Shown one piece after another: positions 8,153 to 58,804 of a DNA stretch of 64,000 bases; positions within the stretch are counted from its first letter, which is position 1; each line of letters opens with the position of its first letter. Source of the DNA: Promethearchaeota archaeon (GTDB lineage: Archaea > Asgardarchaeota > Lokiarchaeia > Sigyniarchaeales > SOKP01). Made by a program: the position numbers and the translations under genes. The notes beneath the pieces were generated by a model. It had not been told where the DNA came from. It saw only the letters and a program-made list of their open reading frames with translations, and made no database searches. The stretch lies in assembly GCA_048940925.1 (NCBI GenBank), contig JBHLOC010000002.1, forward strand, positions 160,001 to 224,000. The letters are read 5' to 3'.

Positions 8153-8174
8153 AATCTAATTAGGTGATTATTCT

Positions 8175-9149
8175 ATAAAAGCAGTTATTTTTGAAGATAT
8201 TCAAAAATTAGTATATAAGGAAGATTATCCTACACCAACTCCTGGTCCAGACGATGTTCTGGTTAAAGTTCATTACTGTGGAATATGTGGAAGTGATGTA
8301 ATAAATTTCAGATATAAGATGTATCAAGTTCCACTCATTATGGGGCATGAGATTTCTGGAGAAATAGCAGAAATTGGTGAAAATATTAAAGATATTAACA
8401 TTGGTGATAATGTAATTGCCATAAATGTTTCGCAATATGTTATGGGAGAATTGAAAGGATTGGGTGTATTTGAAGATGGCGGATTTGCAGAGTATGTGAA
8501 AGTAAGAAGGAGTAATGTATTTTATCCTCCTACATCAATTTCTGCTAAAGAAGCTGTCATGATTGAATCATTTGCTAATATAATGAGAGCTATAAGAATG
8601 TCAATGATAGAGAATAACCAGAGGATCATGATCATTGGAGGGGGGAATATCGGATTAGCTTTCCTAGTAACTTTATTATGTGAAAAAAGCCCTGAATATG
8701 TAATTGTAATAGAACCTCATGAATTTTTAAGAGAAAAAGCAAAAGATTTTGGTGCTATTGATTCTTTTCCTCCAAGTAAAGCTAAAATAAGGAAATTTAT
8801 AAAGAAACATAGGCAACCTTCCTTTGTTTTTGATTGTGTAGGAAGTGAAGAAACTATTAGGATGGCAATCGATTTAATTCAAAGAGGTGGAATTGTGTTA
8901 TTGGAGGGAATTCAAAAAGGCATGGTTATTCATACCTTTCCAATTATTAATAAAGAAATTTGCTTGAAAGGATGTTTAGGGCATGATCGAAACGACATTA
9001 TTTCTACAATTGAATTATTTGCTAAAAATAAAATTAACGCTGATAAATTTATTACTAAAACTATAGCTTTGGAGGATGTTCAAGAAACTTTTGAATCTTT
9101 TATGAAACTAGATAAAAGAGATTTTATCAAGATATTAATTGAAATTTAA
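8175..9149 (+). CDS. Zn-dependent medium-chain dehydrogenase (ATA start)
   Basis: Frame extends 48 codons upstream of the track ATG: (M)KAVIFED..VKVHYCGICGSD..GHE; Rossmann GGGNIG. SD AGGTGA 8162-8167. No structural-Zn CxxCxxC lobe. Confidence 0.88.
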   Translation: MKAVIFEDIQKLVYKEDYPTPTPGPDDVLVKVHYCGICGSDVINFRYKMYQVPLIMGHEISGEIAEIGENIKDINIGDNVIAINVSQYVMGELKGLGVFEDGGFAEYVKVRRSNVFYPPTSISAKEAVMIESFANIMRAIRMSMIENNQRIMIIGGGNIGLAFLVTLLCEKSPEYVIVIEPHEFLREKAKDFGAIDSFPPSKAKIRKFIKKHRQPSFVFDCVGSEETIRMAIDLIQRGGIVLLEGIQKGMVIHTFPIINKEICLKGCLGHDRNDIISTIELFAKNKINADKFITKTIALEDVQETFESFMKLDKRDFIKILIEI

Positions 9150-9199
9150 TATATTTATTTCATTAATCTATTTAAATCTACAAGCTTAGAAAATAAAGT

Positions 9200-10501
9200 A
9201 TGAAAGAGAAGCCAAATATCATCATATTCATCACTCACGACCAAGGTACATTTTTAGGGTGTTATGAGACTCCTCAGACTACAAAATCACTATATACTCC
9301 AAATATTGACAGACTTGCTGAAAATGGAGTGCGGTTTACAAATTATTTTTGTACTGCTCCTCAATGCAGTCCAAGTAGAGGAAGTTTAATGACTTCTTTG
9401 TATCCACATCAAAATGGGCTAATGGGGCTCGTCAACCTTGGATGGACTTTACCTGAAAATAATAAGACTTTGCCAATGTATTTACGAGATCATGGTTATA
9501 ATACTTATTTACTTGGATTGCAACATGAAAGTAAGGAAGTTTCTACCCTTGGATACGACAAAGTCAGTGAAAGAATCAAGGAATATAAATATTCCACCAA
9601 AAAGATGGAAGAAGTATATTTGAGATTTTTTGAAGAACGGCAAGGAGATGATGAACCTTTCTATGTAAATATTGGAACAATTGAAGTTCATCGACCATTT
9701 GTAATATGGAGTGATCCAGTTGATCCAAAATATGTAGAAGTTCCTCCATTTTTACCTAATAATGAACTGATTAGAGAAGATATTGGACTCTTTTATGGGA
9801 TTATCAATAATGTAGATTTAGCTATAGGAAACATAATTAGGTCTTTAGAAAAATTAGGGTTAAGAAAAAATACTCTATTCATCTATACAACCGATCATGG
9901 GAGCCCATTTCCAAGGGCAAAATGTACTTTATACGATCCTGGGATTAAAACAGCGCTCATTATGAATTGTCCAGAATTAGAAATTGTGAGTGGAGGTAAA
10001 ATAATTGATTATAAGATAAGTAATATTGATCTCTTACCAACATTATTAGATCTTGTTGGAGTTAAAAAACCAAGAAACATTGAAGGGATATCATTTTTAC
10101 CAGTATTAGAAGATAAATTTGGAAATTTTAGAAATGAAATTTTTACAGAAAAAACCTATCATGAAATCTACGATCCCATGCGAAGTATAAGGACTGATAA
10201 ATATAAGTATATTCGAAATTTTACAAGTTCAGAAACGTTATATCAAATGCCACTTGATATTCAAAGAGGTCTTTCAGGAAAATTTTTAATAGATACAATT
10301 AAAAAGCCGAGGAGTGAAGAAGAACTCTACGATCTTGAATATGATCCATATGAACAAGAGAACTTAGTTAACGATTCAAATTATCAAAATATTTTACAGG
10401 AGTTAAGGCAAAAATTACTTAATTGGATGATGAATACTAGTGATCCACTTCTAAAAGGTAAAATTGAGCCTCAAAATGGGGTTAGGTATAAAAGAAAATG
10501 A
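9200..10501 (+). CDS. Sulfatase (formylglycine-dependent family)
   Basis: KPNII..HDQG, CSPSR motif, TTDHG, DLLPT, ELYDLEYDPYE. Confidence 0.92.
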   Translation: MKEKPNIIIFITHDQGTFLGCYETPQTTKSLYTPNIDRLAENGVRFTNYFCTAPQCSPSRGSLMTSLYPHQNGLMGLVNLGWTLPENNKTLPMYLRDHGYNTYLLGLQHESKEVSTLGYDKVSERIKEYKYSTKKMEEVYLRFFEERQGDDEPFYVNIGTIEVHRPFVIWSDPVDPKYVEVPPFLPNNELIREDIGLFYGIINNVDLAIGNIIRSLEKLGLRKNTLFIYTTDHGSPFPRAKCTLYDPGIKTALIMNCPELEIVSGGKIIDYKISNIDLLPTLLDLVGVKKPRNIEGISFLPVLEDKFGNFRNEIFTEKTYHEIYDPMRSIRTDKYKYIRNFTSSETLYQMPLDIQRGLSGKFLIDTIKKPRSEEELYDLEYDPYEQENLVNDSNYQNILQELRQKLLNWMMNTSDPLLKGKIEPQNGVRYKRK

Positions 10502-56743: not shown

Positions 56744-58042
56744 TTATGACTTTTTTATTTCTTCTAATAGTAAGGTCAATATCTCTTCATCAGTCTTAAC
56801 ATTACTTGGCGCATTTATAACTTTCTTTAATTCAATAGGGATATGATCTAATCTATAAGCTAATCCCGAACATTCTATACCTGTAATTGCCGATGGTAAT
56901 ATCACATCAGCTATTTGAGAGGTAGCAGATTTCTTATTATCTATCAAAATTAATGGTTTTGCAGCTAATTTTTTACTCAATTGGATTGGTAAATGCGAAA
57001 TTGGATCAGTCCCTACAATTAACGAACTATCAAAATCTTCATTCTTGACTTTTGCGATAACATTATCTGAGGTCTCTGAAAGTTTGTTGTTAATAAATTG
57101 TAAACTATTATTTTTCCCATAACTTGATAATGCGACATGTTCGAATCCTGCCATGTTATAATGCCCACCCAGCATAACGACTGAAATGCGACCTTTTTGT
57201 TGTTTTTCATTAATTATCTGAACCAGTTCTAATAATGCATGGATTACACTGGAACCTGATTGAGTTTTTAATATTCCTTGTCCTATAAAAATAACTCCAT
57301 ATTCTGATCCAGTTAGATGAAGTAATATCCTTTTTAAATCATTAGTATCTATACCTGCAACGCTATGTTCTGGAATACTTCCTTCAGTACAACATTCCTC
57401 CTTTAAAACTTTGATTAATTCAATATCTTTTCCTGGCTCAATATTTAAAGCAATATCTCTGACACCCATGACACCGAAAGAAGCTGTTTTCATTGGATCC
57501 AAAGCTATTAACGTTTTTATTTCTCTTCCTGTCATTCTAAACTTACCACGCGAAAATAGAACCTTATTTAGTAGACGTGGAATTGATTCAGCGACATTTG
57601 CACCCCACAAAATTAATAAATCTGCTTTATTTATGAGTTCAGTGATTGTTGTTAAAGTAATCCCTGTTTCTTTTGCAGTATCTAATACTTTTCCTTGACA
57701 TATAGTAGAATTTGAATCAATAAAGCCATTTATAAGCTTTGCCAATTTAATTCCTTCAAATTGTGCTTCACAACTACTCGTTGAGAATCCATATAATACT
57801 GGATTGGTTGATTGTTTAAGAATATCAACAGTTTTATCGATTGCCTCATCCCAAGAGCTTTTTTCTAATTTTCCATTTTTACGAACCATGGGTGATAATA
57901 TACGATTTTTTGCTGTAACTTGATCAAATCTTTCTTTTCCTTTTAAACATGCTCCTACAACCTCATCAATATATAGTCCATCGCTTCTTATAATTATATC
58001 ATCACATAATAAAGAACAACCTGAACAAGGTATTCTTTTCAT
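56744..58042 (-). CDS. fwdB: Formylmethanofuran dehydrogenase subunit B-like
   Basis: CSGCSLLCDD..C.KG, LYG..TSCEA, ADL...WGAN, GHYNMAG, GTDP, GIECSG.AYRLD. Confidence 0.88.
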   Translation of the reverse strand: MKRIPCSGCSLLCDDIIIRSDGLYIDEVVGACLKGKERFDQVTAKNRILSPMVRKNGKLEKSSWDEAIDKTVDILKQSTNPVLYGFSTSSCEAQFEGIKLAKLINGFIDSNSTICQGKVLDTAKETGITLTTITELINKADLLILWGANVAESIPRLLNKVLFSRGKFRMTGREIKTLIALDPMKTASFGVMGVRDIALNIEPGKDIELIKVLKEECCTEGSIPEHSVAGIDTNDLKRILLHLTGSEYGVIFIGQGILKTQSGSSVIHALLELVQIINEKQQKGRISVVMLGGHYNMAGFEHVALSSYGKNNSLQFINNKLSETSDNVIAKVKNEDFDSSLIVGTDPISHLPIQLSKKLAAKPLILIDNKKSATSQIADVILPSAITGIECSGLAYRLDHIPIELKKVINAPSNVKTDEEILTLLLEEIKKS

Positions 58043-58082
58043 AGATTTTACCTCTTATTAAAAATTAAATAATTAAGATATT

Positions 58083-58568
58083 TTATACGTAATCAATTTT
58101 TACAGCTTCGCGAGGACAATAAGTTTCACATACACGACATTCTCTTTCTCTTCCCTCTGCTTCAATTCTCCTACAGTGCTCTAAATTTAACAATTCGCAT
58201 TTACCTGCTTTAATCTGAAATAATTGATGCTTTTCAGGAGGATAATCAGGTGCTTTTCCACTTAGAGTTGGAGGGCAATATCTAGCATTCACAGGACAAA
58301 CTGTGACACAAATTCCGCATCCATCGCATAAATCTGTATCTACATCAATTCTTAATTCTTTTTCTTTACCCTCCTCAGTGCCTAACATCTCCTTTAGGGT
58401 ATCATAATTCTTTTTATATTTCGGTTCTAAAAGAGGAGTACAATCATCAATTTTTACTTTACCTTGTAGTAAATCTAATGCGAATGCCATACATGTTGGC
58501 TTTCCACATTTTTTGCAATTAGTTTTTGGCAGAAATTTATAAAGTTCCATAAAGTTATTAACGGGAAT
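58083..58568 (-). CDS. Fe-S domain plus dicluster ferredoxin (FwdH/G-like); probable ATT start
   Basis: LPKTNCKKCGKPTCMAFA, CDGCGICVTVCP, CRVCETYCP; AGGTG precedes ATT-CCC-GTT. Confidence 0.85.
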   Translation of the reverse strand: MPVNNFMELYKFLPKTNCKKCGKPTCMAFALDLLQGKVKIDDCTPLLEPKYKKNYDTLKEMLGTEEGKEKELRIDVDTDLCDGCGICVTVCPVNARYCPPTLSGKAPDYPPEKHQLFQIKAGKCELLNLEHCRRIEAEGRERECRVCETYCPREAVKIDYV

Positions 58569-58804
58569 GTTGATAACACCTTAGAATTTAATTTTTCTTT
58601 CTCTTTTCAGTATTGAATAATATTAGGAAATTTATTAATTTCTTTAGTATATTTAAAAAAGAATTCTATTAATGAAAATTGTTTTATAACTGAAATTAAG
58701 GAAATATTCATAAAATATTAACATAAGAATTATTACAAATTAAAAGTATGATATACTAAATAGAACTATTGAAGTATCCTAAAAAACAAATGTGATTTGG
58801 AAAG

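Follow-up and report, generated by a model that had tools for sequence, protein, structure and literature searches.

Probable near-cognate start codons behind Shine-Dalgarno motifs in Lokiarchaeia

Several genes in a 64,000-nucleotide stretch of a Promethearchaeota (Lokiarchaeia) genome carry coding sequence upstream of any ATG, GTG or TTG, which raises the question of whether their translation begins at ATA, ATT or CTG codons placed by Shine-Dalgarno (SD) motifs. The stretch, hereafter the window, is G000:C41:160001-224000, where G000 denotes the source assembly (4.8 Mb, 30 % GC). With a probability that we put at about 0.88, these near-cognate codons are genuine starts, set by the SD and read by the ordinary Met-tRNAi(CAU), a single mismatch being tolerated in Lokiarchaeia. 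The source assembly and the Promethearchaeota (Lokiarchaeia-type) relatives compared with it are metagenome-assembled genomes (MAGs).

Six genes of the window

Six non-canonical starts had been proposed in a sequence-only reading of the window, and every codon, motif and distance was located as given there (Table 1). The 16S tail of the source genome ends with GGAUCACCUCC, which implies an SD core of GGTGA/GGAGG. The motifs preceding the near-cognate starts were complementary to this tail and canonically spaced; ordinary starts at 35049, 25419, 46580 and 53057 displayed spacings of 5-7 nt (5-8 nt in the sequence-only reading). All near-cognate sites differed from AUG by one mismatch. The first ATG, GTG or TTG was found 48 (8175), 8 (15248), 23 (29037), 123 (50186), 90 (51859) and 6 (58568) codons downstream. 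For five of the six genes, ATG, GTG or TTG occupied this codon in orthologues, and in-frame stops usually lay 0-6 codons upstream of the aligned start. The N-terminal extensions yielded dN/dS values of 0.10-0.31 in most pairs (some pairs were saturated), resembling the remainder of each gene and indicating purifying selection instead of pseudogene-like change; the outlier was one distant DtxR pair (0.62).

Table 1. Features considered, with SD motifs (+n, nt to the start codon) and start codons.
Gene	Position	Strand	SD motif	Start codon	Length (aa)
HdrC/B-like Fe-S/CCG gene	2252..3534	+	AAGTGA (weak)	ATT 2263 (probable)	
Zn-dependent alcohol dehydrogenase (ADH) family	8162..9149	+	AGGTGA 8162-8167, +7	ATA 8175	324
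Unknown family	15237..15802	+	GGGTGA, +5	ATA 15248 (in-frame TAA directly before)	184
DtxR/MntR-family repressor	29024..29471	+	AGGTTA, +7	ATA 29037 (or ATT 29034)	144
39846 gene	39846..40313	-		GTG 40313 (ordinary)	
Hydrophobic N-terminus, C-terminal GNAT domain	50168..51862	+		ATA 50186 (or ATT 50183)	558
Kinase-like	51846..53067	+	AGGTGA, +7	CTG 51859	402
Fe-S/ferredoxin	58083..58581	-	AGGTGT 58581-58576, +7	ATT 58568	161
aIF1 paralogue 1	G000:C31 ~2212-2529 (L338:1426-1740)			ATT (ATT-AAA)	
aIF1 paralogue 2	G000:C58 ~43130-42820	-		ATT (ATT-AAA)	

The ADH gene illustrated the interchange of start codons. Among 22 orthologues, the aligned first codon was ATT in 15, ATG and GTG in two each, and ATA, ATC and ACG in one each; in 12 of them the first 28-55 codons contained no canonical start, and a stop lay 1-5 codons upstream in several. 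As the sequence-only reading had pointed out, the catalytic Cys motif is lost if ATA is not the start. Pfam domain ADH_N begins at residue 24 of the ATA-started protein and would be cut by a downstream canonical start. The extension displayed a dN/dS of 0.17-0.28, and ATA 8175 was identical in a contig from an independent sample.

In the DtxR protein, the helix-turn-helix (HTH) domain comprises residues 8-52 and begins upstream of the first ATG, so that a downstream start would remove part of it. An out-of-frame ATG at 29029 had raised the suspicion of an indel. This was rejected on the orthologues, the site lying beyond the stretch compared with contigs of other samples: all 20 orthologues display ATG in the same frame at the codon aligned with ATA 29037, one of them keeping the same out-of-frame ATG. 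The ATA is recent, as relatives at 83-84 % identity have ATG. A DtxR paralogue displayed ATA behind GGAGGAG.

The GNAT gene and the kinase-like gene are adjacent, CTG 51859 overlapping the GNAT stop (51860-51862) as CTGA. For the former, AGGAG is situated 13 nt upstream of ATA 50186; orthologues displayed ATA (seven) or ATG (one) at this codon, and two genomes of another family had ATG one codon earlier. Since the preceding codon is also ATT or ATA, the start could be placed only to within one codon. Orthologues of the kinase-like gene had CTG (six) or TTG (three) at the aligned codon, with an in-frame stop 4-6 codons upstream. dN/dS was 0.13-0.24 over the 122-codon GNAT extension and 0.10-0.22 over the 89-codon extension of the kinase-like gene. 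The latter gave no Pfam match, and its name is only the label of the sequence-only reading.

The ferredoxin gene was the most broadly sampled. Within the genus its start codon was ATT in 20 cases and ATA and ATG in one each, with a stop directly before it in 17, while other families displayed ATG (six) or ACG (one). Over 78 species-level loci, ATT (51) was followed by TTA (nine), ATA (eight), ATC (five), GTT (two) and single cases of GTA, ACG and ATG; the codons after the start varied synonymously. A quick tree required at least 12 changes of start codon, only one of them to ATG. Most loci with TTA, GTT or GTA (L154, L188, L190, L202, L215, L218, L221, L222, L227-L229 and L231) had a strong SD and a stop 0-2 codons upstream; they may represent two-mismatch starts, or else the ATG six codons later may take over. 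Several records (among L153-L232) whose titles name Hermod-, Hod-, Thor- or Odinarchaeota contained loci that were 82-95 % identical to that of the source genome and nested among Lokiarchaeia in the tree, which suggests mislabelled MAGs.

The gene at 15248 is a weaker case, as an ATG follows only eight codons on. The one orthologue found likewise displayed an SD followed by ATA, with no canonical start for 43 codons, and the ATA was identical in two other samples. Two further candidates of the sequence-only reading fared differently. ATT 2263 is probable, four homologues having ATT or ATA at this codon; it competes with an in-frame GTG (2254) situated inside the AAGTGA motif, and the two codons between GTG and ATT vary freely. 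The 39846 gene was rejected as a near-cognate case, since G018, the nearest relative, displays GTG at the position of its GTG.

Near-cognate codons across the genome

SD sites lacking a nearby canonical start (orphan SDs) were collected, and near-cognate codons were counted at spacers of 4-9 nt versus 10-15 nt, GTG inside the SD being discounted. This tally, which the sequence-only reading had suggested, uncovered a clear excess in the source genome: 181/491 versus 56/494 (odds ratio (OR) 4.6, p 2e-21). Nine permuted or antisense control motifs gave ORs of 0.75-1.38, none significant. The excess corresponds to ~125 genes, which amounts to 3.6 % of all 3488 genes, or to 22 % when only strictly SD-led genes are counted. 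It is a lower bound that misses short genes, starts near a canonical codon, genes with chance upstream TTG or GTG and SD-less cases. The earlier estimate of one gene in ten holds for the window (6-7 of ~47 genes), while the measurable figure for the genome is at least 3.6 %.

Individual codons peaked at spacers of 6-7 nt, as do ATG and TTG: ATA (48 versus 9), ATT (52 versus 23), ATC (18 versus 7) and ACG (6 versus 1). AAG, AGG and TTA were rejected as general start codons, no genome-wide enrichment being found behind orphan SDs. When the sites were grouped by SD energy, only the top two tiers (83 and 34 genes) contributed to the excess; strong SDs lead only about one fifth of the genes of the source genome. 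Residue 2 after near-cognate codons resembled residue 2 after SD-led ATG, S and K ranking first.

The same signal was found in Lokiarchaeia genomes G018, G006 and G032 (another family), with p values of 4e-5, 0.02 and 0.005, respectively, and 16-19 % of strongly SD-led genes concerned; these genomes are kin and hence not independent. Control G113, a 400 kb slice from another Asgard family (30 % GC), displayed ~2 %, and the Clostridium plasmid pSOL1 (31 % GC, 192 kb) ~5 %, which was not significant. Asgard breadth is thus represented by one 400 kb slice and the aIF1 loci described below.

Other counts were set aside. A first genome tally was discarded as SD-like words inside coding DNA swamped the signal, and an ATG-anchored pairwise test was dropped because of antisense open reading frame contamination and its blindness to starts common to both genomes. 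'Forced extension' pairwise counts against G018 (77/519, inflated by conserved intergenic DNA) and G006 (7/219, several spurious) were not used as estimates.

An actin paralogue (G000:C7 ~31497, + strand) displayed ATT behind GGTGGT, the next 48 codons offering no canonical start; a downstream canonical start would remove the first actin motif. A second paralogue on C40, ~82 % identical to the C7 copy, and the G032 copy start with ATG.

Both paralogues of aIF1 begin with ATT-AAA. Within the genus the start was ATT in 21 of 21 cases, with stops 2-3 codons upstream, and it was invariant while an Ile codon five codons further on varied between ATT, ATA and ATC. The Zn knuckle, which aligns with that of Methanocaldococcus jannaschii aIF1, is encoded upstream of any canonical start. 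Other Asgard families displayed ATA, CTG, GTG, TTG or ATG at this position. A homologue search was uninformative on start codons, as the proteins that it lists had been called from canonical starts in the first place. A group of Asgard aIF1 (L293, L295, L296, L302, L304, L306, L309, L313, L316 and L321) lacked the Zn knuckle, had a short basic insertion before LQGD and apparently started canonically.

These distributions bear on two alternative explanations. Assembly errors, or pseudogenes whose ATG was lost, might be suspected in a MAG with 8 % contamination, and the recent ATA of DtxR could represent a weak or dead allele for that gene alone. As dozens of independent genomes share these codons, as ATA 8175 and ATA 15248 are also present in contigs obtained from other samples and in other studies, as the extensions are under purifying selection, as the genome-wide peak is phased to the SD and as both copies of an essential-type gene, aIF1, are affected, we regard this explanation as very improbable. 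Proteins might also begin at the next ATG, GTG or TTG, the upstream sequence being conserved for non-coding reasons. Intergenic DNA of close relatives is indeed conserved, a downstream start is conceivable for ferredoxin (6 codons) and the gene at 15248 (8 codons), GTG 2254 might serve instead of ATT 2263, and the two-mismatch codons of 12 ferredoxin loci suggest that the ATG at +6 may serve some lineages. Generally applied, this would deprive ADH of its catalytic Cys motif, DtxR of part of its HTH, aIF1 of its Zn knuckle and actin of its first motif, and it leaves aside the synonymous variation of the extensions; it is hardly credible as a general account.

Initiation machinery and proposed mechanism

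Only one initiator-type tRNA was found, with a CAU anticodon, A1-U72 and three G-C pairs, and is thus canonical. The two copies of aIF1, aIF1A, aIF2-beta, KsgA and the uS9 tail were present with no clear lesion; aIF1 kept the basic loop RKWGR, loop 1 reading DTRKWGR versus TKRRFGK in M. jannaschii. None of the substitutions that the sequence-only reading had thought worth looking for stood out in these components. Its proposal of relaxed start-codon selection stands as far as near-cognate initiation is concerned, while relaxation itself would be an interpretation of those starts and left no visible lesion in the machinery inspected. A tRNA-Sec was called and the initiator tRNA apparently contained two introns (G000:C3 50049-50141, C31 30449-30580).

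A special route, by a variant or modified initiator tRNA or by mRNA editing to AUG, might be hidden by incomplete tRNA detection (34 tRNAs, a low number probably explained by multiple introns), and TTA or GTT at the ferredoxin start would be less odd under it. No single variant anticodon or editing reaction could cover ATT, ATA, ATC, CTG and ACG, the only initiator-type tRNA found has a CAU anticodon, and the codon set is near that read at low level by Escherichia coli with its normal tRNA (10.1101/063800). Such a route seems most unlikely.

Reading by the normal Met-tRNAi with one mismatch is most likely, judging from the codon set, the SD dependence and the E. coli data (10.1101/063800). Strong pairing with the 16S tail would bring the near-cognate codon, which follows the SD by 4-9 nt, into the P site; Met-tRNAi(CAU) would read it there, so that the protein begins with Met. 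Lokiarchaeia would accept such starts at many more genes than E. coli does (~125 or more in the source genome). From these comparisons we infer that initiation actually occurs at these codons, and likewise its efficiency and a lower stringency. Many cases probably arose by AT-biased mutation of ATG, offset by a strong SD, and recent switches such as that of DtxR fit tolerated drift of this kind. Some near-cognate starts were apparently kept weak on purpose: near-absent reversion at ferredoxin and aIF1 fits selection for weak starts, although mutation bias also disfavours reversion. As the aIF1 product rejects non-AUG starts, its own invariant AUU could provide a negative feedback setting start-codon stringency, by analogy with bacterial infC and eukaryotic eIF1 (PMC4705826).

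Several points weigh against one-mismatch initiation as a lineage trait. TTA, GTT and GTA, with two mismatches, occupied 12 of 78 ferredoxin loci and fit simple near-cognate reading poorly; TTA was not enriched genome-wide; the controls outside Lokiarchaeia comprise only one Asgard slice of 400 kb and a Clostridium plasmid of 192 kb; and the factors inspected carry no clear lesion that would account for the tolerance.

Initiation could also be real with an E. coli-like low efficiency (~1-3 % of AUG) and no special relaxation, weak starts keeping proteins scarce and other archaea behaving alike, unnoticed. This departs from the mechanism proposed above solely in efficiency and lineage specificity. 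It needs no machinery change, and none was found; ATG is seldom regained at ferredoxin and never at aIF1 within the genus. It accounts less well for the 16-22 % of strongly SD-led genes in Lokiarchaeia versus ~2 % in G113 and ~5 % (not significant) in pSOL1, or for recent switches (DtxR, actin copy) that look tolerated, and we consider it unlikely, if worth retaining. A more ambitious version of tolerated near-cognate initiation is tentative, and we would not favour it at even odds: stringency would be low throughout the lineage, ATH, ACG and CTG (perhaps TTA and GTT) would be efficient at one fifth of strongly SD-led genes, AUU-dependent autoregulation of aIF1 would set the level, and the genes would form a fidelity-sensitive regulon, a third independent feedback of the IF3/eIF1 type.

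Relation to known systems and annotation

Starts other than AUG are read as Met at the alternative initiators of NCBI table 11 and at mitochondrial ATN starts. Archaeal GUG and UUG starts are also read as Met (PMC7531240), and the reviews consulted do not describe ATH, ACG or CTG as common archaeal starts. E. coli infC (IF3) and pcnB likewise display an SD-led AUU; only two such cases are confirmed there (10.1101/063800), compared with ~125 or more candidate genes here. As with aIF1, it is the gene of a fidelity factor, infC, that is AUU-started, and infC is autoregulated via this codon (PMC4705826). IF3 and aIF1 have unrelated folds, and any feedback would be convergent. Eukaryotic eIF1 is homologous (SUI1) and has a deliberately weak start, and the near-cognate set (CUG, ACG, AUU) overlaps; eIF1 relies on AUG in poor context and scanning, whereas aIF1 of Lokiarchaeia uses the non-AUG codon itself, placed by an SD. 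Sulfolobus aIF1 discriminates against AUU in vitro (PMC4705826). In Kariarchaeaceae, an ATT start behind a likely ribosome-binding site was inferred for the tubulin gene atubA, truncated in GenBank; this concerned a single gene of another Asgard class, was termed 'rare' and came with no genome-wide claim (PMC13394414). The literature searched on start codons and aIF1 in Asgard or other archaea (subscription papers were outside its scope) contained no genome-wide report and no non-AUG aIF1 start. Near-cognate starts as such are known; apart from the inferred atubA start, neither such wide use of them in an archaeal lineage nor a non-AUG start of aIF1 was encountered in this literature. With an AUU-started aIF1, it becomes directly testable whether archaea possess the start-codon fidelity feedback described in bacteria and eukaryotes.

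As standard gene finders shorten proteins starting at ATT, ATA, ATC, CTG or ACG, systematic mis-annotation had been predicted. NCBI records bear this out with truncated forms of four window proteins: ferredoxin (155 aa), kinase-like (312), GNAT (435) and the 15272 gene (176). Database entries probably give shortened forms of at least several percent of Lokiarchaeia proteins, including an actin, TFB and aIF1. This has consequences for domain calls, structures and cloned constructs, in proteomes that serve to trace the origin of eukaryotes. Reviews calling SD sequences rare in Lokiarchaea are based on annotated starts and therefore missed near-cognate sites.

Two other genes were noticed in the source genome. 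A TFB-like gene (G000:C7 ~120382, + strand) has a probable ATT start, with an in-frame GTG inside its SD. A DJ-1/PfpI-like gene (C14 ~10890, + strand), grouped with the neighbour set of window positions 14620-15800 (G000:C41 ~14.7 kb, region 174000), displays ACA in place of the ATG of its G018 orthologue; GGAGGTG lies upstream and ATT one codon earlier, and the start has apparently moved to this adjoining near-cognate codon.

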